A stretch of DNA of 64,000 bases, from the IMG/VR virus record IMGVR_UViG_3300011008_000003. One strand, written 5' to 3'. Shown here in pieces: positions 3,745-54,610 of this stretch (the first letter of the stretch is position 1; each line of letters starts with the position of its first letter). The notes under the pieces are model-generated. The model searched no databases. It had not been told where the DNA came from and worked only from the letters and a program-made list of their open reading frames with translations. Source of the DNA: a virus. Its lineage: Duplodnaviria > Heunggongvirae > Uroviricota > Caudoviricetes. The position numbers and the translations under genes are program-made.

Positions 3745-4083
3745 ATGAACAGATACTTACCTATTAAGATTGATACTTGCAGCCATGAGTATATGATAGA
3801 CCTGTGCGGCAATACCTGGACAGACAGCGGATTGCCTGTAAGTAATATAACCAAATGGAAACTGAATGACAAACCGGTAGTGTTTCGCCTGCATATCTGC
3901 GAGTTAATGAAAGCCGGCGACAAAGATATTCGGATTTTATCGGAATATGCCTTCTGCACAGGTAAGAAGGTTACTGTAGACTTTATGGGTAAAACGTATC
4001 ATCCGGGTGACAGTGACTTTGAACTGATAAAGCTGCATGATGCATTAGAAACCGAAATTGCCCTGGCAAGACTGGAGTTATAA
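3745..4083 (+). CDS. CT-tag protein, leaderless
   Basis: ATG 7 nt after -10; ends ETEIALARLEL. Confidence 0.8.
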   Translation: MNRYLPIKIDTCSHEYMIDLCGNTWTDSGLPVSNITKWKLNDKPVVFRLHICELMKAGDKDIRILSEYAFCTGKKVTVDFMGKTYHPGDSDFELIKLHDALETEIALARLEL

Positions 4084-4361
4084 TGACAATATCAACGAAA
4101 AGCGGCATCTTTGGCGACTGGTATGACTATGAAGTAATACTGCCGTCCAACTTTATTATCTTTAAAGACCATTTTGGTTATGAGGGATTCAATATTGCGG
4201 TGAAAGCCGATGACGGATATAACTATGCGTTACGTATCATCCAGGCAAATCTGATGCAGGTAAAATATAAAGACCAAACTTATGACATGAGGAAACCGAA
4301 AGAATATATGACGCTGAAGAGCATCCTTGAAGCCGATATTGTCCTGGCAAGTCTGGACTAA
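4083..4361 (+). CDS. CT-tag protein, paralog of 3745
   Basis: TAATG coupling; ends EADIVLASLD. Confidence 0.8.
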   Translation: MTISTKSGIFGDWYDYEVILPSNFIIFKDHFGYEGFNIAVKADDGYNYALRIIQANLMQVKYKDQTYDMRKPKEYMTLKSILEADIVLASLD

Positions 4362-4424
4362 AATCAAAATCAAAATTGATTTAAATTAAATTCGGTTTTT
4401 TCTATATTTGAGTTAGAGGTAATT

Positions 4425-5081
4425 ATGACTAAGATTAGACCATGTGACAAACTGACAATCACCGACATCCAGACTTCCATTAAGCAGAAGGCCGTTGCGT
4501 TCGATGCGCTTGCCGAGCTTATTAAGACTTTCCCGGCTCAAGATATGCTGACATGCAAGTTGTCACATATGGACGATCCGACAAAGGAACTTATGGCGAA
4601 CTGCAAGTACCGCATTCCGTTCCATATGAGGGAATCCCAGTTTATGGAAAGCAAGGGACTCGGCATGGGTTACAGGTTACTCGACACCATTCCGGCTGCA
4701 ATTGACCCGGAAAGCCACTATACCATTAACATTGAGATCGTCTGTAAGAAAGCTGGCGGTTATTCCGTTAAGTTAAAGAATGTCTGCGACTATATCTATT
4801 CGCGAATCCGTCGTAAAGAAGGCAATACTGAATTTAAGAATTATCTTAATACGGCAACCTATGAACAGGTTGGACAGGATTCTGTTTCCGCCATTATCCA
4901 CCGTGAAATAAAGGGCTGTGCCAGAAAGGCATCGGCTGTCAAGCATGCGACGAGGAACGTCGAATGGCTCAGGGCTGGTCTGGCTGAACTGATTCCTGCA
5001 ATGTTGGAAGACAGTCTGTATAAGACCGAACAGGCCATGTACAATATGTCGACCGATAAGGTCTTGGGTGTTCTGAAATAA
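4425..5081 (+). CDS. CT-tag protein (218 aa)
   Basis: Pe + RBS; ends NMSTDKVLGVLK. Confidence 0.85.
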   Translation: MTKIRPCDKLTITDIQTSIKQKAVAFDALAELIKTFPAQDMLTCKLSHMDDPTKELMANCKYRIPFHMRESQFMESKGLGMGYRLLDTIPAAIDPESHYTINIEIVCKKAGGYSVKLKNVCDYIYSRIRRKEGNTEFKNYLNTATYEQVGQDSVSAIIHREIKGCARKASAVKHATRNVEWLRAGLAELIPAMLEDSLYKTEQAMYNMSTDKVLGVLK

Positions 5082-5149
5082 AAATTAAGAATAAATCGGG
5101 CTTATATTAAGCCCGGTTTTTCTATATTGTATTAAAACAAGAGGATATT

Positions 5150-5779
5150 ATGATAAATTCAAGTTTAACGCTCGATGAAGCATTCCGAATTCACAAGAAA
5201 CAGCTGGATCACCTTGATGCGGCTCTGGCAAAGATTAAGGAATTTCCGTTAAGCCAGTATCTGCACGTAGGTTTCGACTCAGGGCTCGCCAAGGCCACCA
5301 CGTTCGTCTATAACCTTGAATACTGTTTGCCGTTCAATTTGAACGATACCAGATTCTACGGTTATTCGAAGGATTCCAAGGTCAACATCGACGTGCCGAC
5401 GAGTTGGGTTAAGGATCACCTGTTCTGCAAGCATCCGGTGATAACGATGGCATTTAAGCTCACATACCGTTCCGATAAGGATCAGTGGAGCATTAAGTGT
5501 TCGCACGTCTATGCGACGACAACCTGCAAAGACAAATATAACGACTATTCCGTTGCCGTTAATCATGAATATTCGACGGTCGCTGAAGCAAACCGAGTGA
5601 TTGGCTGGGGTGGCGACGCGAGAAATAAGAGTGCTGTGAACAGGAAATCCGACGATGTGGGTTTTTATATTAAGCTGTTCCAGATGCTGCTGCCGTTCCT
5701 GATGAATGACAATCTTATGGGTGTACGAAGCATTCTGTCCGACGCAGCGAACACCAAAGCATTAAATTCATTAAGGTAA
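5150..5779 (+). CDS. CT-tag protein (209 aa), paralog of 4425
   Basis: Shares LT..IKxFP..YxxPF with 4425; ends DAANTKALNSLR. Confidence 0.85.
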   Translation: MINSSLTLDEAFRIHKKQLDHLDAALAKIKEFPLSQYLHVGFDSGLAKATTFVYNLEYCLPFNLNDTRFYGYSKDSKVNIDVPTSWVKDHLFCKHPVITMAFKLTYRSDKDQWSIKCSHVYATTTCKDKYNDYSVAVNHEYSTVAEANRVIGWGGDARNKSAVNRKSDDVGFYIKLFQMLLPFLMNDNLMGVRSILSDAANTKALNSLR

Positions 5780-5830
5780 TAGTTTACAAGTCAAAACCGA
5801 TTTTCTATATTTAAGCCAGAGGTATTTAAT

Positions 5831-6354: not shown

Positions 6355-7365
6355 ATGGCAAACCAAATGTTCACTCCGATGTCTGATAACGAAGCAGACG
6401 CCTTCCTCGACGATCTCTTCGGCACGTCCGAAGCCGTCGAAACCGAAACCGCACCGGTTGATACCGCTGCAGAACCGACCGTTGAACCGGTTGCTGAAAT
6501 GCCGACCGAAGCGGAAGCTAAGGCAACCGACGTCGAACTTGAAGTGGTCGACGAACTTCCGGAAGTCACTAAGTCTGTGGTTGCCGGCACTCGCCACCTC
6601 AGCAAGCCGCGTGTGGTCGTCAACAAGTTCAACGGTATTGACGGTCTGAGCGCCGCCGAGAGTAACGAATTCAACTCGTGGCTCGCCGCTCACGGTCTGT
6701 GCAAGACCATCGGTGCTTTCGCATCCACTAAGCGTATGCGAATCTACCGTAACCTGGGTACCAAGAACGGTAAGCAGCTCCATTCTCGTGACTGCATCTA
6801 CGTCGTGTCTTCGGACGACTGGCGTAAGAACAAGGAAGCCGTTTATCGTACCATCCTCCGCCTCTCCAAGAAGCAGATGGATGCGGAAATGGTTGTTAAG
6901 GTCGCCGAATACCGTCAGAAGATGAACCAAATCGAGGAAGATTTGCTTCTCCAGCACGACATCGTGATGAACTGGTACAACGGCAAGTCCGCAACCTTCA
7001 AGAAGATCCAGCACAAGATCATGGCACCCGATGTGCTCGCCATGCTTGACGAAGCTGTCAAGCATAACGACAAGTATAACGTTCAGGATATGTACCTGCA
7101 GCGTTTCCGCATGGGTGCCCAGATTGAAGAGCTCGGTATCGCCCCTGAGTACGACTGGCGTAACTTCGACGTCATCGTTAAGGGTGGCAAGGTTGTCTGT
7201 GCTTACAGTTACCGCGACATGGTTCCGCTGTACTCCGAAACCTTTAAGACTGGTTTCTTCAACAAGTTCGGTTACAACACCGAAATCGTGGACTCCGAAA
7301 CCATCGAGAAGGTCAAGGCCATGGGTGCCAAGTACACCTGTGCCGAAGCCGAAAAGAAGGCTTAG
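6355..7365 (+). CDS. Hypothetical protein, acidic disordered N-terminus, strong codon bias
   Basis: Pe + RBS; terminator at 7385-7406. Confidence 0.85.
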   Translation: MANQMFTPMSDNEADAFLDDLFGTSEAVETETAPVDTAAEPTVEPVAEMPTEAEAKATDVELEVVDELPEVTKSVVAGTRHLSKPRVVVNKFNGIDGLSAAESNEFNSWLAAHGLCKTIGAFASTKRMRIYRNLGTKNGKQLHSRDCIYVVSSDDWRKNKEAVYRTILRLSKKQMDAEMVVKVAEYRQKMNQIEEDLLLQHDIVMNWYNGKSATFKKIQHKIMAPDVLAMLDEAVKHNDKYNVQDMYLQRFRMGAQIEELGIAPEYDWRNFDVIVKGGKVVCAYSYRDMVPLYSETFKTGFFNKFGYNTEIVDSETIEKVKAMGAKYTCAEAEKKA

Positions 7366-7514: not shown

Positions 7515-8885
7515 ATGATTACATACAATCTGTCCACCGAAGAGAAATTCGAAAAGATGCAGCAACAAATGTATCTGATTTACCCCTCGCTCGGTTCGTT
7601 CTACAACATGTGCAACAAGCGTGCACTTCCGAAAGAATCTAAGGTGACGCTCCGACTCAACGTCTGCGAAGGTTCCGCTCCGATCATTGAGTATACCGAA
7701 GACTTCATGAAGACTCTGAGCGTCGAAACCTTTACGATTCTGATGAGCATCGAGCTCTTCCGTTTGCTCTTGCATCATCCGACGACTCGTATGCAGATTA
7801 GCCGTTCCCTCACGGTTCAGGCTTCCAACTTCATCTGCAGTGACTCCAAAATTCGTAACTTCATCATGCCGGCACACCTTAAGGATGCTTTCCCGGACAT
7901 CGCTGAAATTCAGGCTATGGAGCCCAGCTTCAACGTCAATGACGACCTTTATCTTGAAAAAGTCTACCGAATTCTTGAAAAGAATTCCCAAGACCAGAAT
8001 CAGAATGGCCAGGGTCAAGGTCAAGGACAAGGCCAAGGTCAAAGCCAGGGTAACGGAGACGGTGACGGTGACGGCCAAGGTCAAGGTCAGAATGACCCGA
8101 ACGGTGACAACCAAGATCAGGATGGTGACGGCGATGGTGACGGCAAGTCCGACGAACAGAAGGAAAACGACAGCCTCAAGCGTCACTTCTCTAGCCAGCA
8201 GTCTGAAAAGAACTCTGAAGGCTGGGGTGAAAACGAACTGGTTGACGCTCAGGTTTCTGGCGAAGTCAACAAGCGTCAGTTGTCTGATTGGTCCGACGTC
8301 GGTAACGGCATGACCAAGATGATCCTGAAGGCCAACGAACTTCAGTTTGACCCCTGGTCCGTCATTAAGCGTTTCGCAACTTCCGTGTTCTCCGACTTCA
8401 TCTCGTTCACTCGCATGCGTCCTAACCGCCGTCTTCCGGATTGGACTGGTGTTCTTCCGGGTAAGCGTCATGCCATGAAGGCTAAGGTACTCTTTGCGAT
8501 TGACTGCAGTGGTTCCATGGCTGAGAGCGAAATCGAACGAGCCTGCGGAGTCGTCAACTCGGCCCTCAAGCATGCTGAAACGTGGTATTGCTTCTGGGAC
8601 TGCAAGTGTTCTGACTTCACTCAGAAGCGTTCCAAGACTTCGGACTTCGACGGTCTCGGTGGTGGCGGCACCAACCCTGACTGCGTAATCAAGAAGCTCG
8701 AGGAATCCAAGGAACACTTCGACGGCCTCGTGTTCATCACGGACTGCTACTTCGACTGGCAGCAGCCGAAAGGAAAGCACAAGATTTTCATCCTGCACAC
8801 CAAGGATGCGGGTGATCCTCCGGCTTGGTGCAAGTGGCATCTGGGCATGGATGACATCGAAAAGATTCAGAAGTCTCGCTCTTAA
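7515..8885 (+). CDS. vWA-domain protein with N-terminal metallopeptidase-like domain (DUF2201-like), probable MoxR partner
   Basis: MIDAS DCSGS...GGGGT...ITD; G/Q/D-rich linker; HExxH position reads IELFRLLLHH. Confidence 0.8.
   Translation: MITYNLSTEEKFEKMQQQMYLIYPSLGSFYNMCNKRALPKESKVTLRLNVCEGSAPIIEYTEDFMKTLSVETFTILMSIELFRLLLHHPTTRMQISRSLTVQASNFICSDSKIRNFIMPAHLKDAFPDIAEIQAMEPSFNVNDDLYLEKVYRILEKNSQDQNQNGQGQGQGQGQGQSQGNGDGDGDGQGQGQNDPNGDNQDQDGDGDGDGKSDEQKENDSLKRHFSSQQSEKNSEGWGENELVDAQVSGEVNKRQLSDWSDVGNGMTKMILKANELQFDPWSVIKRFATSVFSDFISFTRMRPNRRLPDWTGVLPGKRHAMKAKVLFAIDCSGSMAESEIERACGVVNSALKHAETWYCFWDCKCSDFTQKRSKTSDFDGLGGGGTNPDCVIKKLEESKEHFDGLVFITDCYFDWQQPKGKHKIFILHTKDAGDPPAWCKWHLGMDDIEKIQKSRS
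7995..8160 (+). repeat. Coding low-complexity repeat (GQ/GD linker)
   Basis: GGTCAA/GGTGAC hexamer repeats. Confidence 0.8.
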
Positions 8886-9008
8886 GCGATGGCTTCCGGG
8901 CCTTTGCCTCATGAACAAAGGGTGGCCGATTAAGTTCGGCTGCCCTTCTTTAATTTTTTGACTATTAAACTTATTTACAAAGATTTTCAGATTTACTATA
9001 TTAAGGAT

Positions 9009-9344
9009 ATGCTTAAAGAAAAACGTTATAAAATCGAAATTGACACAGCATCTCCGGCCGTGAGCGTGCTGAAAGACGTCCCGTATCACAGGCTGTGGGA
9101 ATTCCTGCGGGCGCACCCAGAGTACAAGAAGTACGCGGATGTTAACTGCAGCCGTCCGATCTATGTGTACAAGAAGTGCAAAGTCGGAACAACAGCATTG
9201 TGGAAACTCGTAGATGCACTGACATATTCGATGAGCGGTTGCCCGACTAACATCCGCCGCGATGCCAAAGACCTTAAGCGTAATTACGGTGTCAACATAG
9301 CCACCGACATGTACAAGTATCTGAGCCTGGAAGTTCTGAAGTAA
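9009..9344 (+). CDS. CT-tag protein, leaderless, between vWA and AAA genes
   Basis: ATG 7 nt after -10 (8997); ends DMYKYLSLEVLK. Confidence 0.75.
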   Translation: MLKEKRYKIEIDTASPAVSVLKDVPYHRLWEFLRAHPEYKKYADVNCSRPIYVYKKCKVGTTALWKLVDALTYSMSGCPTNIRRDAKDLKRNYGVNIATDMYKYLSLEVLK

Positions 9345-9576
9345 ACGTTTAATAAAATTTAATTGACAACATTTAAAAATTTTTCTATCTTATAAGGCAT
9401 GTTGAATATGGAATATATGAAAATTGACTTTTTTGCGAGCGATTCCAACAAGCCGAGCGCTTCCGACGAAAATCACTCAAAGATAATTGTTTACAAGTCA
9501 ATTCGAAATTTCTATATTTAACCACGTAGCAAGTCGCTACATCGTTCAACAACTCAGAAAACCTAAGAGGTATCTA

Positions 9577-10731
9577 ATGAATATCAAGCAGCTCACCAAC
9601 GCAATCAAGTTCATCCCCGCCCGCAAGTCCATCATGCTCAAGGGCACCCACGGTATCGGCAAGACCGAATGGGTCACTCAGCTCGCCAAGGACCTCGGCC
9701 TCAAGCTCGTCATCTGGCACGCCAGCCATGCCGCCGACGCCGGCGACATCACAGGTCTTCCTTTCAAGGTCACGGAAACTGACACCGAAACTGGTGAAAC
9801 CCGCGAAGTGACCAAGTTCGCCAAGCCGCAGTGGATGATCCAGAACAAGCCGGTTCTCCTCTTGCTCGACGAAATCAACCGTGGCCTCAGCATTGCATTG
9901 AATGCAATCATGCAGCTCACCAACAACGGAACGTACGACGACATTACCCTTCCTGAGGGTAGCCGAATCTTCGCCTGTATCAACCCGGAAGAGGACGGCA
10001 AGTACGACGTCGGTACGATGGACGCCGCACAGCTCGACCGCTTCGCCATCTACGAATTCAAGCCGACCGTCGAGGAATGGGTCGACTGGGCAATCAAGGC
10101 TGGTCTGGATTCTCGTGTTGTCCAGTACATCAACACGCACCACACCATGTTGGACCCGTACTCCAACAACGAACTTGTGAAGTCCGTTCAGGGTAAGGAT
10201 TGCGGTGTTCTTCCGTCTCGCCGTGCTTGGGAATGCGTTTCCAAGACCATTCAGAACGGCGACAAGGAACGTGCCTGGGAAGGTCAGGAAGGTATCAACC
10301 TGCTCACCGAAATCATGAACGGTATTGTCGGTACCGGTGCAACTCTGGACTTCATCGCTTACTTCAAGTCCGCTGGTAACAGCCTCAACCCGAAGACTCT
10401 GATGGAACTCCCGGAAATCACCGACAAGGAACGCAAGGCAATCGCAAAGCTCTGCAAGACCGACTTCCCGAACGCTACCAAGCTCGTGGGTGGCTGTGTC
10501 CTCTTCCTCAAGGAACACAACGACGAACTTGCGACTTCCGTCGGTGCTCAGTGGTCCCACAACTTCTACGACATTCTGGCGGCTATGACCAAGGACGCCC
10601 AGATTGCCTCCGTGAAGGACTGTGTGATTGGGGCTGTCAAGGCTCACGAACCGTGGGCTCTGAACCTCAGCAAGCACGAACATCGCTTGAAGGAACTCTA
10701 CAAGGCCGCTCTGGTTGTCCGCGACCTTTAA
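9577..10731 (+). CDS. MoxR/AAA_5-type AAA+ ATPase
   Basis: Walker A GTHGIGKT, Walker B LLLLDEINR, ACINP sensor, AQLDRF arginine finger, PSRRAWE; AAGAGGT RBS before 9577. Confidence 0.9.
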   Translation: MNIKQLTNAIKFIPARKSIMLKGTHGIGKTEWVTQLAKDLGLKLVIWHASHAADAGDITGLPFKVTETDTETGETREVTKFAKPQWMIQNKPVLLLLDEINRGLSIALNAIMQLTNNGTYDDITLPEGSRIFACINPEEDGKYDVGTMDAAQLDRFAIYEFKPTVEEWVDWAIKAGLDSRVVQYINTHHTMLDPYSNNELVKSVQGKDCGVLPSRRAWECVSKTIQNGDKERAWEGQEGINLLTEIMNGIVGTGATLDFIAYFKSAGNSLNPKTLMELPEITDKERKAIAKLCKTDFPNATKLVGGCVLFLKEHNDELATSVGAQWSHNFYDILAAMTKDAQIASVKDCVIGAVKAHEPWALNLSKHEHRLKELYKAALVVRDL

Positions 10732-11090: not shown

Positions 11091-11804
11091 ATGAGTGTAG
11101 TAATTTCCAGTGGTTTCCAAGACATCAAGCTCGCCGATGACTCTCAGTGGTCTGTCGGTCGTAAGCGGTTCTTTGAAGACATTATGACCGAACTCCAGCG
11201 GGCGGACGAGGAATGGTGCGCAAGTCTGGTTATCGGACGTAAGTTGGACAAAGCCGCGGCTTACTTCACCGCAGCTGACTGTCTGATTACGATTGTGATG
11301 CCGGAAGGAACCGCAACTTACGACGAGAACACCAAGGAAATCAGGTTCGCCGATGAAGACAAGTGGGTCTGTTTCGTCCACGAGGCAAGCCACTTTATGC
11401 ACATGGTGGTTGACGGCGGTAAGTTCATCAGTCCGAGCTTCGAGCATCTGGAACCGATGGTACATGCGGCGTTCGACGGACACCGTAGGTCCAACACCAA
11501 GTATCTGGAATTCGAAGCAGGCTATCGCAGTCTGTATTACAACGAGATTTACGAAATGGGTCCTAAGGAACTCTATTTCGAAAGGAATCTGAAAAATATG
11601 ATGAACTACGTCAGGGTCGAAGGACTCGAGGGGTTTGTCAAGGCTCTCCAGGCTTGCAAGTCGGAAGACGAAGCCAAGGCTGTAATCGAAAACCGTAAGG
11701 AAGACTTCGAAAAGGCCCGCCAGCAGATCCAAAAGTGGTCGGACCTCGACAAGTTCACAATCACGGTTCCTGACAGCACCGTGGCTGCTCCGGCTGAAAA
11801 CTAA
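11091..11804 (+). CDS. Putative zinc metallopeptidase (HExxH)
   Basis: FVHEASHFMH with downstream LEFEA third-ligand-like motif. Confidence 0.6.
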   Translation: MSVVISSGFQDIKLADDSQWSVGRKRFFEDIMTELQRADEEWCASLVIGRKLDKAAAYFTAADCLITIVMPEGTATYDENTKEIRFADEDKWVCFVHEASHFMHMVVDGGKFISPSFEHLEPMVHAAFDGHRRSNTKYLEFEAGYRSLYYNEIYEMGPKELYFERNLKNMMNYVRVEGLEGFVKALQACKSEDEAKAVIENRKEDFEKARQQIQKWSDLDKFTITVPDSTVAAPAEN

Positions 11805-12806: not shown

Positions 12807-13199
12807 ATGAAAGAATCTGATATGGAAATCGTTAAGAACATGACGGACGCCAAGCTCATCGTCGCAATCCGTGATGCTGTTCCGGACGCCAAGGACACGA
12901 TGCGTGCCCAGGACATCTGTAACAAGAAGCGTTACGCCGAAGACCGTTCGATGCTTGCCAACAAGCAGTTGAAGGCGATTACCGACACTTCGAAGTTCTA
13001 CCGTCGAGCCAAGGCGTTTCTGTTAAAGGAAATCGACATCAAGCTCAACGACACCATCTTCTACAAGTGCAATACCATCAACGCAAAGAACTTCATCAGT
13101 TCAATGAAGCAGATGGTCAAAGCCAACCGTGAAACCATGGAGGCTCTGGACGCGTTGAATTGCCGCGTTCAGAGGTCAAAGAATACGGTAGCAATATGA
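12807..13199 (+). CDS. Hypothetical protein
   Basis: Pe + GGAGG. Confidence 0.8.
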   Translation: MKESDMEIVKNMTDAKLIVAIRDAVPDAKDTMRAQDICNKKRYAEDRSMLANKQLKAITDTSKFYRRAKAFLLKEIDIKLNDTIFYKCNTINAKNFISSMKQMVKANRETMEALDALNCRVQRSKNTVAI

Positions 13200-14727: not shown

Positions 14728-14811
14728 GGCCTTGTGGCGGAATAGGTAGACGCTGCAGACTTAAAATCTGTTGGGAGATTTCCCGTGTCGGTTCGAGTCC
14801 GACCTTGGTCA
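14728..14811 (+). tRNA. tRNA-Leu(TAA), no encoded CCA
   Basis: D arm GCG/CGC, anticodon arm GCAGA-CTTAAAA-TCTGT, long variable arm, T arm GTCGG-TTCGAGT-CCGAC; two U:U mismatches in acceptor stem. Confidence 0.85.
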
Positions 14812-14931: not shown

Positions 14932-15234
14932 ATGATGGAAATGAATAAGAAAATAAAAATTGTCTACAAGGATAGCTTGTCTGGTGAAACCAACGAACGC
15001 GAGATAAAGCTCCGGAACATCCTGGACCTTATGAAACATACGGGATTCAGTGAACTATACTTCTGGAACAATTATGTTGGCAGACTGGCCAAGATAATGA
15101 TCTTCGATGATAAACTGGTTAAATGGTTTGACAAGGAAGGTGTTGAACATACCGACTACGAGAAGCTGGTAGATACGTTGTCGGTTTACGCCGAACAGAC
15201 GAAACTAAAAGATGCCCTGGCAAGTCTGAATTAA
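14932..15234 (+). CDS. CT-tag protein, leaderless
   Basis: ATG 7 nt after -10; ends QTKLKDALASLN. Confidence 0.8.
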   Translation: MMEMNKKIKIVYKDSLSGETNEREIKLRNILDLMKHTGFSELYFWNNYVGRLAKIMIFDDKLVKWFDKEGVEHTDYEKLVDTLSVYAEQTKLKDALASLN

Positions 15235-19537: not shown

Positions 19538-19611
19538 GGACAGGTAGCTCAATAGGTTAGAGCAGCGGACTCATAACCCGCCGGTTCTCGGTTCAAGTCC
19601 GAGCCTGTCCA
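19538..19611 (+). tRNA. tRNA with CAT anticodon (elongator Met or Ile2), no encoded CCA
   Basis: GGACAGG/CCTGTCC acceptor, GCTC/GAGC D stem, CTCATAA loop, CTCGG-TTCAAGT-CCGAG; own Pe (-10 at 19523). Confidence 0.9.
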
Positions 19612-45622: not shown

Positions 45623-46000
45623 ATGATGAAAGCCAACAAGATTGAAGACATCCGCCGCATCTACACCAAGTACGAAGGCGTTCCGTGCAAGATCGAAGCA
45701 GACCGTACGAAGCAGGTCGTTTCTGTCGAATACAACTGGACTGGCGACGATAATGCTCGCCGTTGCTTCGTCGCCTACGCTTGTGTGAATGGTGATCCAG
45801 ATCGTTTCTGCATGTCTGAATACGCGAATTCCGACCACGATGAAAACTGGAACTGCGATGTAACCGTTAGCTTCTACGGGAATCTGAACAACGACCAGGA
45901 GATTCTGGATTTGGTCGAAAGCTTGCTGATGAACTTCTTCAAGGCTGAACGAGCAATGAAGGTCTTCAGTAAGCTTGAGAAAGCTGGACTCGTCAAGTAG
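45623..46000 (+). CDS. Hypothetical protein
   Basis: Pe + leader hairpin + RBS. Confidence 0.8.
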   Translation: MMKANKIEDIRRIYTKYEGVPCKIEADRTKQVVSVEYNWTGDDNARRCFVAYACVNGDPDRFCMSEYANSDHDENWNCDVTVSFYGNLNNDQEILDLVESLLMNFFKAERAMKVFSKLEKAGLVK

Positions 46001-46500
46001 TTCCGACATACCAGCTGACAGTCCGTTTGACACGTCAGATGTCAGATAGGCTGTCAGTTTGCTGCGTTTTATGACGGCTTTTACGACGTTATTTGGGCAT
46101 AACGTCAGCTTTCGCGACGTGCCAAATGACGCCCCGGTAGGCCTATTTTAGGCTGGTATGCCGACGCCCCAGTGCGTGAAAAAACGGGCAGGCGGGCTCC
46201 AAAAAAATGTGCTAAGGCGAGCCTATAGGGTTAACCCCCCGGCCCGGGGGCCCAGGTCTCCTATGGGCGGGCTTTTTGCGTGCGTGTCTTTCTCTTAAAA
46301 AAAATTTTTTCCGGGAAATTTTTTCTGGGCTATCTACTGGCGGGCAGATATGGCGGGCGGCAATCGGGACATATATCGGGACACAATGTCTTGATTATTA
46401 TATAGTTTTTTCGTATCGAGACATTTCTACCCCCGCCCGGGCTTATTTTTGAAAAAGGCTCATTTTGAAAAATTTTTTATAGAAAAATTTTAATCCTATA
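46001..46500. other. Non-coding GC-rich palindromic/repeat junction (candidate terminus, pac or origin region)
   Basis: Nested inverted repeats, C6/G5 runs, A/T tracts, paired direct repeats; gene organisation changes across it. Confidence 0.5.
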
Positions 46501-46539: not shown

Positions 46540-46854
46540 TTGCGAAATAAGATAAGTAGAGAAGAGTTAGATAGCTTACAGCAGTATCTGAAACATAATG
46601 CCGTGGCTGATTTATACAGTTCGGACTGGTATTCAATAAATGGCTTGGAAATAAGTATCGACCTTGATTGCGTATATGTATACCTGATGCGTGACAAATG
46701 GCTGATAGCGTGTACCAAGGCCGGGTGTGGTCTGAGCAGTGATAACCCGCATAAGGTTATTGTACTTGATTTCGACAGATTGATGCGGTTAATCGACGGC
46801 GGCGAGATGGCTTATAATAATATGGAGACCGAGTGGATCCTGAATGAGCTGTGA
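46540..46854 (+). CDS. CT-tag island protein (start codon uncertain)
   Basis: Pe -10 at 46536; AAG where a leaderless ATG is expected (46549); ends NMETEWILNEL. Confidence 0.6.
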   Translation: MRNKISREELDSLQQYLKHNAVADLYSSDWYSINGLEISIDLDCVYVYLMRDKWLIACTKAGCGLSSDNPHKVIVLDFDRLMRLIDGGEMAYNNMETEWILNEL

Positions 46855-46855
46855 T

Positions 46856-47329
46856 TTACGGCAATTCATCTATGTATTCTTCTATCATACGGTTTTCCAT
46901 AGCCAGTTTTTCTTTTAATATATCCCTGTATGTATCGGAAGACAAGAAGTTCTTTCTGAGTTCGTTCATGAATATTACGAGTTTTTCCGGGTTATCGTTC
47001 GGGTGTTTGAGGCGTAATACGGAGAGCGGAATGCCGTCGGACGGCTGGGAAGTATTATTTACATAGATTTTTATCAGGTATATGGTATCGTTTTTACGTA
47101 ATAACGACTGTCCTTTTACCATGAAGCATAGGATTTTGCTGTTTAGCGGGCTGACGACGCCGAGGCACGCTATGAGGCATTCACCGTCTACTGGGGATAT
47201 GCGGGAGCTGTACTGGTGGAAATTGTCGCCTATACTGTTTCCGAATATTTTAACGGCCTGGTTGTCCGCCAGGTCCAGTTCGTGTTTATATTTTTCCTGT
47301 TTCAGCTTATATTTCTTTTCGTAGTTCAT
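46856..47329 (-). CDS. CT-tag island protein, family A
   Basis: DNFH / MNELRKNF; ends NRMIEEYIDELP. Confidence 0.8.
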   Translation of the reverse strand: MNYEKKYKLKQEKYKHELDLADNQAVKIFGNSIGDNFHQYSSRISPVDGECLIACLGVVSPLNSKILCFMVKGQSLLRKNDTIYLIKIYVNNTSQPSDGIPLSVLRLKHPNDNPEKLVIFMNELRKNFLSSDTYRDILKEKLAMENRMIEEYIDELP

Positions 47330-47835
47330 GGCAGGGAATCCAGGAGTTTCTTGGTCTTGTAGTTCTGTCTCTGCAGTATTTTCTTTTTCAGCTTTACGAA
47401 CCCGGTATTCATGTATTCACTTCTGTATTTTTCCATTTTATTCAGGAGTTCCGTTACGGAACCTGCCTGGTCTATATACTGGTAATCCGGATCGTAGCCG
47501 ACGGAAGAGCAGAGGCCGTTCGAGCCGATCGGGCCGTATGTCATGTGCGGGTGTTCTTTCTGAGGATCCCTGATTCTGTAGATTCTGTTTGTTGTATATT
47601 CTTCCAGCAGGATTTCGCCTATGACACGCCAGCACAGATTGGCTGGTTTAGTCGGGTGGGCTATGCCAAGCGATATTTCTATGCCTTTTTCTTTATTTGA
47701 CGAGACATAGGATGAGAATATATGGAAATCGTCATGGAATTTGTCTCCATACAGTTTATGCGCAATATGTTCGGCTACGGCGAGGTCGGGCATCAGTTCT
47801 TTAACTTTTTTGGTATATTCCAGGTATTTACTCAT
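47326..47835 (-). CDS. CT-tag island protein, family A
   Basis: DDFH / CWRVIGE / KMEKYRSEY; ends NYKTKKLLDSLP. Confidence 0.8.
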   Translation of the reverse strand: MSKYLEYTKKVKELMPDLAVAEHIAHKLYGDKFHDDFHIFSSYVSSNKEKGIEISLGIAHPTKPANLCWRVIGEILLEEYTTNRIYRIRDPQKEHPHMTYGPIGSNGLCSSVGYDPDYQYIDQAGSVTELLNKMEKYRSEYMNTGFVKLKKKILQRQNYKTKKLLDSLP

Positions 47836-48119
47836 TCTAGGATCTCCAGTGCGGTCTTGGTGAGTTCATTGTTCAGTTCCAGCATGAATTTATGTTCGTT
47901 TTTCTTTATTTCCTCGTAGTTGTATTGTTTTTCGCCGAGCTGGATATAGCAATACCTGCGTGTCGCACTCTGGTCGAACCAGATAACGTCTTTTTTGCTG
48001 CCGTCGAACCAGAACTCAATCCTATATTTCAGTACATCAAATACGGTAACTCTACTGAATAATATGTCGGTAATATTCCTGTAGGTTGTGCCGTAGAGGT
48101 TGTCATATATGATAATCAT
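47832..48119 (-). CDS. CT-tag island protein
   Basis: Ends NELTKTALEILE. Confidence 0.8.
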   Translation of the reverse strand: MIIIYDNLYGTTYRNITDILFSRVTVFDVLKYRIEFWFDGSKKDVIWFDQSATRRYCYIQLGEKQYNYEEIKKNEHKFMLELNNELTKTALEILE

Positions 48120-48503
48120 TATAGAACCTCCAGAATTTCTTTGAGTTCCTGTTTCTTGGCTTTCTTGAACTGGCGTCTTACGAATTCTTGTCTTTTTTCT
48201 TCCATTTTATCAAGGAGCTTGTCTACCGTAGAGAAATATACGGGTTTTCTATTAAGACAGGTTTTCGATAGGGTCTTGTCGAATACGATTAACATTTCAT
48301 GTGGTTCTTTATCTCCGTCGTAGAAAGTCAGGCGTGCTTCCCAAAGGACATTGTACATTTTATCGTACCCATGCGGTCGAGTGGTCATAATTGGACCAGT
48401 GTTCAAGTGTAAAAGTATAGTCGTCGAACTCGCACCAACGGGAACACTTCTCCAGTCGTGCTTTCATTTTCTTGTTGACTGCTGCGTAATTGTTATTGTT
48501 CAT
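48119..48503 (-). pseudogene. Family A CT-tag gene with apparent frameshift
   Basis: Coupled ATG at 48503 opens a 47-aa frame stopping at 48360; family A C-half (KMEEKRQEF...KEILEVL) is in another frame. Confidence 0.55.
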
Positions 48504-48919
48504 GGTAGGGAATCGATAATCTGTTCTATTGCGGTATTACAAAGCTTTAAATAGTCACCTTTGATAAATTCAAGGCGGTATTCTTCCATTTTGCGCATCA
48601 TGCCGGCCAATGTCTGAGCACATGGGTAATATTCTTCCGTATTTGATTTATTGCTTAAAGGTAATCTTATTCTATAGGTTTTATTACCGTGCTCGTCGAC
48701 GAAGACTTCACCATAGACTTTCCAGCAGGCGAACCTGGTTCTTCCGGGTCTAGGGTCCGTAACGTCTATCCAGACAACGTATTTTCGGTCTTGCCAGTTT
48801 TTATATTGGCAAAAATCGTGGAGATCGTCGTCGAGGTTATAGTCATACATTTTCATGGCGATGCTGAGAGCATTCTTTTCGAGATTCTCAAATATTTTTG
48901 AAATGTCTATATATTTCAT
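48500..48919 (-). CDS. CT-tag island protein, family A
   Basis: DDLH / CWKVYGE / KMEEYRLEF; ends NTAIEQIIDSLP. Confidence 0.8.
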   Translation of the reverse strand: MKYIDISKIFENLEKNALSIAMKMYDYNLDDDLHDFCQYKNWQDRKYVVWIDVTDPRPGRTRFACWKVYGEVFVDEHGNKTYRIRLPLSNKSNTEEYYPCAQTLAGMMRKMEEYRLEFIKGDYLKLCNTAIEQIIDSLP

Positions 48920-49314
48920 TTCAATACCTCGATAGCCATTGTTGTCGCTGCATTTTCAAAATGCATACTGTGTGCCTTGACGAATTCCTTTCGTTCGTAT
49001 TCCATCGCAGAAATAAGAGACTTTAAATCTGGAAATTCATTCCAGCCTAAATCTTCATAAACCCTGTTAAAATGGTCATACTTAACTTTATATAGATATT
49101 TGTCTATGTCGCAGTAAATTCTGGATTCGGCTGACCAGACATCAACACGTTCACAATATTCCTTGAACGGTGCCGGTACATAAAGAAAAAACGACACATA
49201 GTCATTGCTATCGAAATGTGTTGCATAGTCATATAAATCATATTTACAGAGCGGTTTATAATTAGTATAACGCTCTATTAAAATATCGCAAAGTTCTGTC
49301 ATTATATCTTTCAT
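48916..49314 (-). CDS. CT-tag island protein, family A, leaderless
   Basis: AMEYERKEF; ends NAATTMAIEVLK. Confidence 0.8.
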   Translation of the reverse strand: MKDIMTELCDILIERYTNYKPLCKYDLYDYATHFDSNDYVSFFLYVPAPFKEYCERVDVWSAESRIYCDIDKYLYKVKYDHFNRVYEDLGWNEFPDLKSLISAMEYERKEFVKAHSMHFENAATTMAIEVLK

Positions 49315-49389
49315 GACCATAATATAGTAAAACATTTCCTAACCGTAAACGGGTTGACAGACATAAAATATATTACTATATTGCATACC

Positions 49390-49839
49390 ATGAAGACTCT
49401 CAATGAATGTATCGCAGAAGGATTCGAGCCTACGAGAAAGTACGGCTGGTTCGACTATAAGCGTGACTATGTACGCAAGATATGGAAACTTGCGGAAGAG
49501 ATGGGTTTTGAAAAGAGTTTCGGATATAACAGGTGGTGTTATTATTATAACATAGAATTACCAGAAATTCCAGGTAGGCCTTGGGCTAAACATACCCGAG
49601 GATATTATTTTATGTTTTTTGATTGCGACGGTCAATGTCTGCCTGAAATGAGAATGTTCATAAGTAATCCGCAGGCTTTGGACACGGCATTGTTGACTAC
49701 ATATCCAGTAAAAGAATTTAAATACGCGATAGTACCGGAAAAGGTTATTTTGGATATGTTTACCAAATTTGACCATCCGGATAAATTTTTACTGTATCTC
49801 GAAAACTGGAATAACAACAATATACTGGATGCATTATAA
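49390..49839 (+). CDS. CT-tag island protein, family B, leaderless
   Basis: TTGACA(49354)/TATATT(49377); ends NWNNNNILDAL. Confidence 0.8.
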   Translation: MKTLNECIAEGFEPTRKYGWFDYKRDYVRKIWKLAEEMGFEKSFGYNRWCYYYNIELPEIPGRPWAKHTRGYYFMFFDCDGQCLPEMRMFISNPQALDTALLTTYPVKEFKYAIVPEKVILDMFTKFDHPDKFLLYLENWNNNNILDAL

Positions 49840-49841: not shown

Positions 49842-50183
49842 ATGAAAAGAAATGATTTCAATATTACATGGACACCGATGTATTTAACGAGTATTCTTAC
49901 CGATGCTGGATGGCGTCAGCATTATGGATATGAATTGACATACTGTAAAGGAAACTATGTAATTCGTGGGCTTGCTAGTGATAACAAAATATATGAATTA
50001 AAGCTCTGGTCTATGGACAAGTATATCGCGACAACCAGTAGTCCATATCGTGGCTGTCAGCATTATGAACATTTTAATGTTCCGATTGAAGAAATAATTG
50101 CTGGCGCGGAAGGCGACTTAAATACGCTTGAAATGCGTATGAACTATTACGAGACTCGCAGGGCAGTCGAGGAATTGGATTAG
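49842..50183 (+). CDS. CT-tag island protein, family B
   Basis: Ends NYYETRRAVEELD. Confidence 0.8.
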   Translation: MKRNDFNITWTPMYLTSILTDAGWRQHYGYELTYCKGNYVIRGLASDNKIYELKLWSMDKYIATTSSPYRGCQHYEHFNVPIEEIIAGAEGDLNTLEMRMNYYETRRAVEELD

Positions 50184-50184: not shown

Positions 50185-50559
50185 ATGGAAAAGTATATGT
50201 TTTCGCTTAAATATGTAGACCGTATTTTACAAAAACACGGTTATACTAAGTTATCTGAAGATAAGACCTCTGATACTAATCAATGTAAGATTTATTTTAA
50301 AGCGAATTTAATTGTACAGGTATATTTTAATGCAGACTTGATTGGGCATGAAGTAACTAATATTGCCATTGTCGATAATAACTTTAGTCTGCCTGACATG
50401 TATAAACGGTTTGTCGCTACTACTCAATCTGAAAGCGTTATATTTAAATATGATAGCATACCGATAGAAAAAATATTAGATTTGGCAATCGGCAATACTG
50501 CAACGCTTAATATGCGAATCGAGAATAGCATTACAGAAGAAGCTCTGGAGCAACTATGA
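50185..50559 (+). CDS. CT-tag island protein, family B
   Basis: Ends NSITEEALEQL. Confidence 0.8.
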   Translation: MEKYMFSLKYVDRILQKHGYTKLSEDKTSDTNQCKIYFKANLIVQVYFNADLIGHEVTNIAIVDNNFSLPDMYKRFVATTQSESVIFKYDSIPIEKILDLAIGNTATLNMRIENSITEEALEQL

Positions 50560-50999
50560 TAGGAACGGTTAATTTAAAGGCAGCACATCAAGGAAATAAG
50601 TACGAGATAATGGAAATCGAAGATTATGCACGTAGTCTTGGTTTTTCTGATGTTCCTGGTTTTAAATCCAAGCTTGAAAGTCTTACAGCTAAACTAATAA
50701 AGACTACTAAAGACGGATTTTTTATTCTTGAACTTTGTGATGGTACATGCGGCGGAATATACGGTATCAATGCCTGGCTGTCATGGGAAGATAAATTCCC
50801 GTCTGGTAATCGTGGCACAGTGAAAGGTCAACTATTAGTTTCCGCTTTTAGTTCAGCATATAATATTTGCGATGTCGGCGTAAAAACATTTAAAGAAATG
50901 CTTCGCACATTGGATATGATTGAAGGTAAATGTGGTAATTATGGTTCCGAATATTATATCAATAATTGGTATCATGCTGCCTTGATGGAGACATTATGA
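50556..50999 (+). CDS. CT-tag island protein
   Basis: Ends NWYHAALMETL. Confidence 0.8.
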   Translation: MIGTVNLKAAHQGNKYEIMEIEDYARSLGFSDVPGFKSKLESLTAKLIKTTKDGFFILELCDGTCGGIYGINAWLSWEDKFPSGNRGTVKGQLLVSAFSSAYNICDVGVKTFKEMLRTLDMIEGKCGNYGSEYYINNWYHAALMETL

Positions 51000-51367
51000 G
51001 CAGTCATAGCCTATATCATTTTTTAACTAAGAAATGCGGTTTTAAGGAAGTATCGATTGGTAATCGTAAGCATGTGTCATGGGAAATGGACTGGCGCGGG
51101 TGTGTAAAGAACGATATTTTTGTCTTAAAGCTTGGAAGCTGCTATGAAGGGTTTACGTATGCCTGCGGTGAACTTGTAGTAAATGCCCTTGGGTATCATG
51201 ATATGAAAACGATTTTAATTTCTACAGACCCAAAGGAAAAAGAAGCAGCACATATCATAAAGAAAGATTTATTTAAGGATATGCTTTTGAATTCTGATAA
51301 CTATTACGAGTTGCTTCGGCGAGTAACTAATTATAGTAATCGGAAAGCTTTGGAAGTTTTGGAGTAA
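50996..51367 (+). CDS. CT-tag island protein, family B
   Basis: ATGA overlap; ends NYSNRKALEVLE. Confidence 0.8.
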   Translation: MSSHSLYHFLTKKCGFKEVSIGNRKHVSWEMDWRGCVKNDIFVLKLGSCYEGFTYACGELVVNALGYHDMKTILISTDPKEKEAAHIIKKDLFKDMLLNSDNYYELLRRVTNYSNRKALEVLE

Positions 51368-51439
51368 CGTAAAATTTTTACATTTGTGTGACATTTATGA
51401 TTAGAAAACGTATATTTAATATGAATAGGGAGGTTCGAT

Positions 51440-51856
51440 ATGCATGTACAGAAATTTGACATAAACGGACTTACTCCGGATCATGAAAAGGAATTATTCG
51501 AAGGTAATTCCTTGATATTGATATACACAGGAAATATTCTTGGTGGCGGAGATTTAAAGTATATCGTCATGCGACCAGAAAATGACGGTAGCGATAAATC
51601 TATAATCGAACAGGCTTTTATCAAATTCTCCGGTTGGGGAAAGAAAGCAATCCTGTACAGTACGGTTATTACGGCGTGCCTTAATCCAAGCCTTGTATTG
51701 TCACAGACAGATATTTCTGCGAGAATCTATTACGTAGATAACAATACGCCGATGTACGGGAATATAAACATTTCTGAATACTTTTCTAACATAAGAATGA
51801 AACTTGAAAATGCAATACTTGAGGATATAATAGATGGATTGCCATGCCTTGAATGA
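51440..51856 (+). CDS. CT-tag island protein
   Basis: GGAGG; ends NAILEDIIDGLPCLE. Confidence 0.8.
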   Translation: MHVQKFDINGLTPDHEKELFEGNSLILIYTGNILGGGDLKYIVMRPENDGSDKSIIEQAFIKFSGWGKKAILYSTVITACLNPSLVLSQTDISARIYYVDNNTPMYGNINISEYFSNIRMKLENAILEDIIDGLPCLE

Positions 51857-52202
51857 AATCGAATTGTTAAGATACGGAAGATTAGAAAAAATCGATAAAG
51901 AAGATTGGTTTTTTGAACGGTTAAGTCTTGACGAAGCGCCAAATAAAATAGATGAACTTTCAGTTTATACTGATATTAAAAGACATCCTCAATTAAAGGA
52001 ATGTTATATTTACATATTATGCATGACAAAAGACGGTTGTACAATCGGTGATTATGATTATACGGAATATGAATATTTTAAGTCAAAAGAAGACTTTAAT
52101 AAGGCATGCGATGAATATAAAGGAAGTGCCGAAAAATGTCATAATCGGTATATAGAATACATGAACAATTATCACAAACATTTATTAGATGAAACAATAT
52201 GA
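51834..52202 (+). CDS. CT-tag island protein
   Basis: Ends NYHKHLLDETI. Confidence 0.75.
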   Translation: MDCHALNEIELLRYGRLEKIDKEDWFFERLSLDEAPNKIDELSVYTDIKRHPQLKECYIYILCMTKDGCTIGDYDYTEYEYFKSKEDFNKACDEYKGSAEKCHNRYIEYMNNYHKHLLDETI

Positions 52203-52744
52203 GTAATATCAAAGATAATCTTACAGTAGCAACAGCATCAAACGGTACTAAATCAGTAGTATCTTTACCAACATTAGTAGGTGATTCTTCAGCCTCGTCC
52301 ATAACGATAGATTCATCGTCCGTCATTTCATTAGACGATGGAACACCGGTAAAGCTATATGTAGACAGGTTTCAAAAAGCACATCATGAAGCATTGGAAA
52401 AGATTACAGACTGGCTTGTAGAAACACAGAAGGCAGAACTTGCAAAAGGTTATATGTGTAGCTGGTCAAGGATTGTCTGTGGATTTGAAATCCGTATAAG
52501 CTTTATGGATTCAGGTATGATAAACAGTGCATATGATTTGTATATAGAGATTAAGTCTGTTACAGAGTCAGGAAGAACACCGGTATCGAAACATATCTTT
52601 TTCTCGACGGACAATGCAGTATATGACTGGTTTAAACAACATGATATTAATAAGCTTATAGATAGACTTGAAGAAAGCGTTAAAGAATATTTTAAGGCAT
52701 ACAGTAACTTGAATACCGTAATTGACCTGGAATTAAATCTATGA
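52199..52744 (+). CDS. CT-tag island protein (DLELxL variant)
   Basis: Ends SNLNTVIDLELNL. Confidence 0.8.
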   Translation: MSNIKDNLTVATASNGTKSVVSLPTLVGDSSASSITIDSSSVISLDDGTPVKLYVDRFQKAHHEALEKITDWLVETQKAELAKGYMCSWSRIVCGFEIRISFMDSGMINSAYDLYIEIKSVTESGRTPVSKHIFFSTDNAVYDWFKQHDINKLIDRLEESVKEYFKAYSNLNTVIDLELNL

Positions 52745-53031
52745 CATATAATAACAAGTCATTAGATATAACGATAGCACAGTTGGCTTTCGGTGATGCA
52801 GAGCCTACGGATTTGCATATATTTTATAATTTGGATAAACATAATTTTAGAATATTTTCATACGATCAGGATAGGTTTGCATGTAAGAACGGAATATTTT
52901 CGGTAGAATATCCATTGCCTGAAAATATGTCGCCGGTAACGTTTATTGAGAATATGACAAAGAATAAAAAAGATGTCTATATATTCTTTGTAAACATGTA
53001 TCATACAAAATTATTGGAAACATTAGAATGA
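52741..53031 (+). CDS. CT-tag island protein
   Basis: Ends NMYHTKLLETLE. Confidence 0.8.
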   Translation: MTYNNKSLDITIAQLAFGDAEPTDLHIFYNLDKHNFRIFSYDQDRFACKNGIFSVEYPLPENMSPVTFIENMTKNKKDVYIFFVNMYHTKLLETLE

Positions 53032-53453
53032 CCTGGGAAGAATGCGAAAAGTATTTGATTGAACATGATTTTAAACTGGTAGATTCGCGTGAAGAAAACC
53101 AATTCTATCAAGGCTCGACGGCAGGTAGAACTTTAAGAAAAGACCGATATGAAGTTGAAATTGTATATAAAGAAGATCTTGAACCTATATTGATTTGTCG
53201 GGTAATTTTTAAAGAAAAAGAACCTGATGTATTTTATTTTGAAGAATGTTCTGAAACTTTAATGTGTACAGATAAAAGATTACTGAATGAATTAATAAAT
53301 ACGCATTTAGGTGAAGAACTTTATGTACGTGAAACTAAACGCGGCGGGATGTCAATCGAAGTATTCTTGAAGGTCGTTACCGGTGATATGGATAAGTATT
53401 GGCTGAAAGTAGATAACCTTAATAATTATGAAGCAATAAATGCATTAAGTTAA
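53028..53453 (+). CDS. CT-tag island protein, family B
   Basis: Ends NLNNYEAINALS. Confidence 0.8.
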   Translation: MTWEECEKYLIEHDFKLVDSREENQFYQGSTAGRTLRKDRYEVEIVYKEDLEPILICRVIFKEKEPDVFYFEECSETLMCTDKRLLNELINTHLGEELYVRETKRGGMSIEVFLKVVTGDMDKYWLKVDNLNNYEAINALS

Positions 53454-53455
53454 TT

Positions 53456-53776
53456 ATGGAACGTAAAGAGTTAAATGTGTTATTAGACTATGGTTTTAAA
53501 ATAGATAAATATGAACATGTCTATAGAAAAGAAAATTATTATGTAGCATGGGCACCTGGTGCAAAAGCACCATTACTTATTGATGACTCTGTAAAAGCTT
53601 TATCTTCAGATCGATATTTAATGACTACTGCGGGAAATCTTCTTGGTTATAAGTATTGTAATGTACCTAAAAAATTATTTTTTAAATTTTTATCAGGTGA
53701 TTTACGGAATCTTAGAGTATTGTTATGGAATTATGAATTGGAAAAAACATTGGAGAACTTAAATGGCTGCGCTTAA
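53456..53776 (+). CDS. CT-tag island protein, family B
   Basis: Ends NYELEKTLENLNGCA. Confidence 0.8.
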   Translation: MERKELNVLLDYGFKIDKYEHVYRKENYYVAWAPGAKAPLLIDDSVKALSSDRYLMTTAGNLLGYKYCNVPKKLFFKFLSGDLRNLRVLLWNYELEKTLENLNGCA

Positions 53777-54134
53777 TGAAGTAATACAATGGTCTCCTGA
53801 AATAGAACAGAAAATAGATTCAAAATTATTATCTGCTGGGTTTGAATCATCATTAACACCTGATACACTTTATTATCATAAAGATAATTGCGAGTTTAAG
53901 ATTTGGAAAGTACGAACTGGTTGTTTTTGTTTTGTTAAGTTATTATCTTGGAATGATGTTAATGATGATATTTTCCTTATAGCAAGCAATAATAATAGTT
54001 ATTATAGATACAGAAATCTTTCACTGGATGAAATACTAAATATATTGACTACATGTAAAGATATTAGTAAATTGGAGATGTATATGGCAAACAGAGATAA
54101 CTTAAAAGCACTGGAGGTTCTTGCATGCCGTTAG
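53763..54134 (+). CDS. CT-tag island protein, family B
   Basis: Ends NRDNLKALEVLACR. Confidence 0.8.
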   Translation: MAALNEVIQWSPEIEQKIDSKLLSAGFESSLTPDTLYYHKDNCEFKIWKVRTGCFCFVKLLSWNDVNDDIFLIASNNNSYYRYRNLSLDEILNILTTCKDISKLEMYMANRDNLKALEVLACR

Positions 54135-54610
54135 ACGAACCGGTACGTTTTGGTGAATTTAAAAACGAATTACTTAAATTATTTAAGACATGTAAAGCTA
54201 CGCCTGATATTAACACTAATTTACAGGTATATCATCCGTATTCAATCGCTGTTACGTATAAGTTGAACCATTCTACATGGAAATTGGAAATGGACCCGGG
54301 TAGTCCGATTGCAAGTATATTTAATAGTGAATATACACAAGATTTTATAGTAAATTCAACTATTACATTTGAATTTTATTATATGACAAGCACAATGGAC
54401 GCAACTGATGTTTATGCGGTAAGAATTAAAATATCGCATTTATATAATGTTAAAGAAAAAACATTTATGTATAATAGCCTTAAAGAATTTATGAAAACAT
54501 TTACAGAAATATTTAACCTATTTAAATCATGTATTGAGTCTAAGAGTACAGAAAATATCGATTTAGTAATCAAGAATTACGAAAATTATTGTGCGATTTC
54601 TCAATTATAA
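54125..54610 (+). CDS. CT-tag island protein
   Basis: Ends NYENYCAISQL. Confidence 0.8.
   Translation: MPLDEPVRFGEFKNELLKLFKTCKATPDINTNLQVYHPYSIAVTYKLNHSTWKLEMDPGSPIASIFNSEYTQDFIVNSTITFEFYYMTSTMDATDVYAVRIKISHLYNVKEKTFMYNSLKEFMKTFTEIFNLFKSCIESKSTENIDLVIKNYENYCAISQL

Follow-up and report, generated by a model that had tools for sequence, protein, structure and literature searches.

A C-terminal helical tag shared by small, fast-changing proteins of a T4-like jumbo phage

The sliding clamp gp45 of bacteriophage T4 is bound by the extreme C-termini of gp43, gp55 and gp33, and the same phage's capsid-targeting sequence is N-terminal and is cleaved by the head protease. In ssrA-type degrons the terminal residues are fixed. 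The internal proteins of T4 have diverse bodies with only the targeting peptide in common (PMC3012670). MoxR-vWA machines grip an acidic residue through a MIDAS (metal ion-dependent adhesion site) and act on C-termini (PMC4660213, PMC13036017, PMC7159879), and MIDAS binding of the acidic residue is established for CbbO (PMC4660213). Iyer et al. 2021 (PMC7824862) describe a MoxR AAA+ ATPase paired with a metallopeptidase-vWA protein in group 2.2 jumbo phages, presumed to be a virion-assembly chaperone, and lineage-specific expansions of small domains in jumbo phages, such as the ~35 zinc ribbons of phage G. Here we analyse 64,000 nucleotides of caudoviral DNA (IMG/VR record IMGVR_UViG_3300011008_000003; the window, meaning the whole of this stretch). 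About a quarter of its proteins end in a shared 12-residue helix, which we call the tag, and 33 carriers can be recognized.

The statistics and selection of the tag

The tag is a real, selected, protein-level C-terminal helix on small early proteins that turn over fast, and its carriers are partly paralogous and partly unrelated. A preliminary description of the window had claimed it for all 20 genes of an array at 46.5-54.6 kb and for about 15 genes scattered through the early region. The strict pattern N-x5-[AILTV]-[LIM]-[EDN]-x-[LI]-x(0-4)-stop closes 14 of the 119 window genes, every one of them in the array, against 0.18 expected from internal pseudo-ends and a maximum of 2 in 2000 shuffles, so that the expected enrichment over such controls is borne out. 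An Asn lies 10 residues ahead of a near-terminal Leu or Ile in 17 array genes and in 4425, 17622, 18699 and 25377 (genes are named by their lower coordinate), reproducing the 21 counted previously; two more, unlisted genes fit this spacing, and about 4 are expected by chance.

A leave-one-out position-specific scoring matrix was built from the 20 array genes, 4 bits being reached by 1% of null ends. By this measure 19 of the 20 score at least 4.2 bits and 52199 fails, so the claim for the array stands for all genes except that one. Of the 99 genes elsewhere in the window 11 score 4 bits or higher, where 1.0 is expected. The scattered set therefore survives in part: 19722, 23784 and 36507 score as background, and a tagged homologue was not found for them; 3745, 4083 and 39492, and within the array 52199, have a looser variant of the tag only; and 12807 had been missed. 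Because the pattern had been read off the window's own array genes, we used as an independent test a 411-kb relative, G002, with a MoxR protein 74% identical to that of the window. The array-built profile finds 57 of its 653 C-termini at 6 bits or above, against 3.0 expected. Tagged arrays lie at 17-28, 340-350 and 365-407 kb of G002, with bodies mostly unalignable to those of the window, and the tagged ends are concentrated in proteins of 80-140 aa (44 of 241).

Over profile-selected carriers the consensus, in per cent, is N47/Q13 at position -10, A48/I18/T12 at -4, L53/I37 at -3, E48/D29 at -2 and L94 at 0. The stop falls no more than two residues past this Leu in 81 of 88 tags, and the one or two residues at the very end are free to vary (P, D, K, A, E). 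Among same-residue codon pairs 567 are identical, the expectation being 561; codon identity is thus at chance, which argues that there is no DNA site here and that conservation is at the protein level, as had been proposed. Across 26 orthologue families the key positions (0, -2, -3, -4 and -10) are 93% identical, compared with 78% for the bodies (Wilcoxon p=1.5e-5), and the other tag positions equal the body at 79%. As judged from these alignments, selection is shown to maintain the key positions, which would form one face of the predicted helix. The proposal of an amphipathic terminal helix holds for the helix, which is selected and ends a long helix in both of the folded models described below, but not for its amphipathicity, since the hydrophobic moment of the last 12 residues is 0.33 against 0.32 for other C-termini. 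The large enzymes and the late genes lack the tag, in agreement with what was first noted.

The source of the window is a ~425-kb T4-like jumbo phage, uncultured, of the ruminant gut. An identical MoxR protein is found on contigs of 425-428 kb, and the independent DNA sets that hold the array are bovine gut metagenomes. G002 encodes a T4-type major head protein, clamp, clamp loader, single-strand binding protein, helicase and late sigma factor (gp23-, gp32-, gp44-, gp45- and gp55-type genes). The window has 42% GC and about 119 genes, and most genes of 0-46 kb have their own TTTACA..TCTATATT promoter. Genes past 54.6 kb are without such promoters, and several have TATAAATA late sites. We infer that the carriers are early proteins, because early-type promoters occur at 0-46 kb and in the array and are absent past 54.6 kb. 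RNA runs gave scattered low-depth contigs across the array, from which transcription does not follow. A scan of genomes for the promoter pattern in search of the host returned five unrelated records. Between 600 and 46000 there are ~60 near-identical sigma70-like promoters of this form, followed by AAGAGGT, nearly one per gene.

Carrier bodies and the arrangement of tagged genes

The bodies had been described as without visible mutual similarity, and this is correct only in part. An initial comparison of tag-trimmed profiles gave 27 groups among the 33 carriers; profiles deepened with 49 extra representatives from a library of 1.84 billion proteins gave about 23. Five plus-strand genes (49842, 50185, 53028, 53456 and 53763) form family A, with 49390 borderline, and five minus-strand genes (46856, 47326, 48119, 48500 and 48916) form family B. 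The tag-trimmed profiles also join 4425 with 5150, and 3745 with 4083 (family D).

One model was made for each of families A and B, and both end in a long helix that follows a first helix and a sheet of four strands. The model of 48500 (predicted local distance difference test, pLDDT, 89.8) has a 34-residue terminal helix at residues 104-137 (pLDDT about 90), with the tag at 127-138. Most of the best-fitting structural matches to it stop at residues 114-120, ahead of the tag, and for this reason the tag probably projects from the head domain in the predicted structure. Lengths within family B differ by a step of exactly 7 residues ahead of the tag. Set against HicA-like or RWD-like alpha/beta folds, the heads give matches to common arrangements, the best having Z 5.4 for 50185 (root-mean-square deviation 4.3, 95 aligned) and Z 8.2 for 48500 (3.0, 90 aligned; 1ylx, of unknown function). 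Foldseek found no match among viral structures at E<=0.001, and the ESM Atlas yielded nothing but unnamed clusters, under 0.9. Across five genomes, 134 carriers scanned against Pfam and PHROG gave almost no named match. The protein with a kinase match (G002 77951) probably has a false tag, because its orthologue in G005, a complete genome of 424 kb, is untagged.

One fold is insufficient to explain the tag, because a left-handed hexapeptide beta-helix protein of G002 (phrog_5070) also carries it, ending ETMEALAKL. By eye its 11 closest homologues keep an ETMEALAKL-like ending, while among more distant homologues (a set that includes one of those 11) 2 of 110 reach 4 bits; going by these endings, this widespread protein is tagged almost only in the present clade. 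The carrier bodies are thus shown to include at least two unrelated folds. The prospect that all tagged proteins are one homologous fold, raised at the outset, does not hold for about 23 groups and a beta-helix carrier, remote homology being possible among the alpha/beta families. Of the 55 tagged proteins of G002, 3 have a homologue in G005; among its small proteins without the tag the figure is 140 of 312.

The array has two arms, which a divergent pair of sigma70-like early promoters at 49318-49389 (matches at 49349, minus, and 49354, plus) would drive, judging by consensus. On the minus strand 48916 (48916-49317, family B) is the first gene of the leftward operon, followed by 48500 (48500-48919), 48119 (48119-48503), the family-C gene 47832 (47832-48119), which has nine further members in the G002 array, and the family-B genes 47326 (47326-47835), with a terminal helix 7 residues longer than that of 48500, and 46856 (46856-47329). 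An 8-nt deletion has put the 48119 gene out of frame; its true start is 48503, and its relatives have 128-130 aa. At the outer end lies a plus-strand gene of uncertain start that ends WILNEL (46540-46854), with a sigma70-like promoter at 46513. The plus-strand genes of the other arm begin with the borderline family-A gene (49390-49839) and two family-A genes (49842-50183 and 50185-50559, the latter modelled as alpha/beta with helix 105-123 ending in the tag). They continue with four genes of ungrouped body (50556, 50996, 51440 and 51834; 50556-52202), the gene that fails the profile with its variant ending VIDLELNL (52199-52744), another of ungrouped body (52741-53031), three of family A (53028, 53456 and 53763; 53028-54134) and the last tagged gene (54125-54610). 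Ten close relatives have gained and lost entire tagged genes. Gene 53456 is missing in all ten, the junction falling in the tag, and one relative retains a 61-aa remnant that is mostly helix and tag. The comparison suggests that arrays evolve by duplication and loss of complete head-plus-tail genes.

The array is rich in AT, with 31-37% GC at 48-54 kb, and its terminal Leu is most often encoded by TTA. In close relatives a DDE transposase gene adjoins the array region (L037:19121-20167) and an IS605 OrfB-like fragment lies within it (L042:7599-7937). Between the early region and the array, positions 46000-46500 are non-coding and GC-rich and contain several short repeats, both inverted and direct; this may be an end or origin of the genome. 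Two contigs from the sequencing run that is the probable source meet there, at 46458-46484.

The scattered genes described next are all on the plus strand. The two family-D genes with the looser tail (3745-4361) are homologous to the tagged array of G005, and 4425 and 5150 (4425-5779) are tagged paralogues of 218 and 209 aa. Gene 9009 (9009-9344) derives from a ~180-aa gene by in-frame deletion and retains just the last six residues of the tag. Gene 12807 (12807-13199) has lost its stop and runs on for 12 residues; the stop directly follows the tag in 13 relatives among the matches listed. Further tagged genes are found at 14932-15234, 15976-16296, 17622-17984, 18699-19085, 25003-25709 (25003, borderline, and 25377) and 29073-29696 (207 aa), and a 444-aa gene at 39492-40826 has a weak variant ending, LFDLELSL. 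In the same region lie tRNA-Leu(TAA) at 14728-14811, tRNA-Met(CAT) at 19538-19611, and a conserved gene at 35886-36332 with homologues in G002, G005, G007 and G008.

Tails in other lineages and candidate readers

Every phage lineage examined is shown to have its own tail. The genomes compared, all found through MoxR, include complete G005, G009, AR9 and TR2 and partial G006-G008. About ten G005 genes at 276-281 kb, homologues of 3745 and 4083, end in a variant tail, approximately N-EV-x-FLL-[AD]-LE-[KN]-V. The G005 array was spotted by eye and missed by the de novo motif finder, so calls of 'no tail' are lower bounds on sensitivity. The G008 tail is [KR]-[LI]-x-K-[ILM]-x-x-D-F (31 of 157 genes), and that of G007 is I-[KR]-x-A-A-x-x-[YFW] (about 9-12 genes). 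More distant phages have a [YFH]-P-E-x-x-hydrophobic tail, on 54 of the 331 open reading frames (ORFs) of the cultured Vibrio phage Va1 and on 55 of 201 in G010. Most lineage tails place an acidic residue shortly ahead of a terminal hydrophobic one. The orthologous body of 12807 ends EALDAL in the window, KNLLDSI in G005 and KIQKAAQIF in G006, which clusters with G007 and G008 in the core tree. In G010 (L071:1-13600) ~40 near-consecutive small genes surround vWA and MoxR genes, and almost all, including that of a 313-aa protein, end YPE[YF]xL.

The leading named candidate for a partner, although an unlikely one overall, is a module of MoxR, peptidase-dead vWA and zincin encoded on the plus strand of the early region. 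The vWA protein (7515-8885, DUF2201-like, with DUF2201_N just below cut-off) has an intact and conserved MIDAS (DCSGS..T..D), and IELFR replaces its HExxH. The tagged gene 9009 separates it from the MoxR-type AAA+ ATPase (9577-10731; AAA_5 above cut-off, AAA_3 below). A HEASH zincin-like protein (11091-11804) lies near MoxR-vWA also in G002, G005, G006, G007 and G008, and a conserved 336-aa protein of the module (6355-7365) is present in G002, G005, G006 and G008. MoxR, vWA and zincin are all present in G002 and G005-G008. HExxH is absent from the vWA protein of the window and of these five genomes, and present in AR9, TR2 and Va1; the loss coincides with a stand-alone HEASH zincin following MoxR, in the window and in the five relatives alike.

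Several possible links between this module and the tails were followed. Tagged genes lie 0.8-3.3 kb from MoxR in four genomes, and the 20 kb around MoxR rank merely in the top 10-36% of windows, which is no special closeness. Tail type follows the vWA tree, and a 14-gene core tree has the same topology. The G008 MoxR is itself no tail carrier, its ending RIQNEFK being background on the DF profile. Among contigs selected by tail independently of MoxR, a fragmentary sample (5-56% complete), MoxR occurs on 1 of 7 with a DF array. A complex prediction that joined MoxR, the vWA domain, Mg and the C-terminal 37 residues of 50185 returned no answer, with a score of 0.00, and weighs neither way.

The sliding clamp is unlikely to be the reader, because the polymerase and late sigma end differently from the tag. 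The polymerase piece of the window (62191) ends NPMDEFLI and the late sigma of G002 ends NTVDDFRGEED; both are background on the tag profile and look like the clamp motif, unlike the tag, which has no aromatic position and so departs from the acidic-aromatic (SLDFL-like) type. This family-B DNA polymerase (62191-63925; loci compared L034:885-4134, L040:2096-3136 and L001:1404-2372) is split into two ORFs of about 750 and 338 aa. Relatives have an extra ORF of 322-346 aa at the break, and the G005 polymerase is a single open frame of 1075 codons, which suggests a split gene or mobile insertion site. G002 (L011:11902-12717) and G005 (L096:9997-10809) also encode a stand-alone 270-aa BRCT protein, which can be read as an NAD-dependent DNA ligase's C-terminal half with Zn finger, HhH and BRCT; the partial genomes G006-G008 gave no such protein.

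The role of the tag and its relation to known systems

We give a probability of about 0.5 to the reading that the tag is a C-terminal docking or address helix, N-x5-[AIT]-[LI]-[ED]-x-L with 0-2 further residues, that a single partner reads. The tag would lie at the tip of a long helix reaching past a compact head domain, and would bind a single groove on one partner common to all carriers. Fast-changing heads, probably host-directed effectors, decoys or adaptors, would then be handled as one class, whether for retention, delivery or turnover. Since tails differ from lineage to lineage, the partner is somewhat more likely to be encoded by the phage than by the host; with a MoxR-vWA reader the acidic residue of the tag might serve as MIDAS ligand. 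A wider proposal, which we regard as tentative and rather doubtful, is that large phages run a tag-and-reader system. The module, or another single phage protein, would recognise the C-terminal helix specific to each lineage on dozens of small heads that can replace one another, and would draw on these heads as a library of plug-in adaptors or effectors directed at the host; the tail and its reader would change together by lineage.

A number of observations weigh against a docking helix. Families A and B make up half of the array and have the same alpha/beta-meander/alpha layout, so that much of the carrier count is paralogy, and shallow profiles may hide further kinship among the bodies. The fold matches of the two models are weak and overlap in part, and on these models the two families may be remote homologues. 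Extensions of 5 to 12 residues occasionally survive (12807; G002 372978). The switch of tail on an orthologous body is known from one gene family, that of 12807. Complete AR9, TR2 and G009 have MoxR and vWA with no enriched tail, and the pair is thus not sufficient for tails. The agreement of tail type with the MoxR/vWA tree is kinship only, because tail type follows the core-genome tree. Of the variable library on one hub that was first envisaged, the helix shared by more than one fold stands, on a less heterogeneous library and with no hub named; MoxR-vWA stays a candidate for that hub.

These points have to be set beside other ways of accounting for the same ending. The tag could be the end of a self-association or core-packing helix that spread as a few families duplicated and through recombination onto other heads, its carriers dimerising or hetero-oligomerising with no separate hub. 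Families A, B, C and D are indeed true expansions, the family-B helix changes in length by 7 residues, the conserved positions share one helical face, and whole-gene gains and losses break at the tag. We nevertheless consider this unlikely, given that the tag is also on the beta-helix protein, almost only in this clade, that lineages differ in tail across many unrelated genes, and that the stop lies at a nearly constant distance (two residues or fewer in 81 of 88), for which a coiled coil has no need. That distance would fit a turnover signal, in which a protease or ATPase of host or phage reads the tail as a C-terminal degron or unfolding handle and early proteins are cleared together. The extra residues on some tags had been held to argue against a degron, and this is a weak argument because nearly all tags end so close to the stop. 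The terminal hydrophobic residue, the sigma70-like early promoters ahead of the carriers, and the zincin and AAA+ ATPase encoded in the same early region fit a turnover signal too. Yet the last one or two residues vary freely, unlike those of ssrA-type degrons, and the conserved Asn at -10 with its helical spacing suggests a folded contact; a turnover signal is thus distinctly improbable.

Loading into the virion, the tag being a C-terminal counterpart of the T4 capsid-targeting sequence that packs variable counter-defence proteins into the head, appears very improbable. In T4 the signal stands at the N-terminus and the head protease removes it, and the tag offers no useful cleavage site, since 29% of tags have D instead of E and what follows is just 0-3 residues. 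The carriers moreover lack late promoters. What recommends the idea is that the phage is T4-like, that the carriers are small and hypervariable, and that T4 internal proteins are likewise diverse bodies with only a targeting peptide in common (PMC3012670). Lastly, a DNA-level cassette or recombination site overlapping the gene ends would explain why gene gains and losses break in or beside tag-coding DNA. It is largely refuted by the chance level of codon identity (567 vs 561), the window's listed families of large repeats consist of promoter copies and not of gene-end sites, and we regard it as hardly credible.

In jumbo phages the majority of genes are small, hypervariable and without annotation. 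If the shared tail is an address label as in the docking-helix reading, it makes one functional class of about a tenth (G002, 57 of 653) to about a fifth (G008, 31 of 157) of the genes, and a single pull-down would name the common partner. A bench test is possible now, since a phage in culture, Va1, carries a tail of its own (54 of 331 ORFs). New here are the quantified selection, the fold evidence, the change of tail lineage by lineage within one clade, and the negative MoxR-vWA tests.

The gene pair of group 2.2 jumbo phages is the same as that at 7515-10731, where the MIDAS is intact; the window differs in having a vWA protein without HExxH and a separate HEASH zincin, and the available portion of the published account describes no tagged clients (PMC7824862). 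CbbQO and NorQD are likewise MoxR-vWA machines engaging an acidic residue, through the MIDAS, and a protein C-terminus (PMC4660213, PMC13036017); they have single dedicated targets without a library of tagged small proteins, and in the present case such binding is only a candidate. The small-domain expansions of jumbo phages resemble families A, B, C and D in being arrays of diverged paralogues (PMC7824862), whereas here several families and unrelated folds have only the tail in common. A literature search found no description of such a tail, in keeping with the original remark that no described equivalent was known. Like the clamp-binding tails of T4, the tag is an extreme C-terminal peptide that would dock unrelated proteins on one phage hub, but those tails are on polymerase and late sigma, and here both proteins are untagged and have their own ending. 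Like the T4 capsid-targeting sequence it is a short peptide on diverse, hypervariable small proteins of a T4-like phage, but that sequence is N-terminal and of ~10 residues, and the tag is C-terminal, helical and on dozens of genes. The tag would thus work like these shared terminal peptides, and is a member of neither group.

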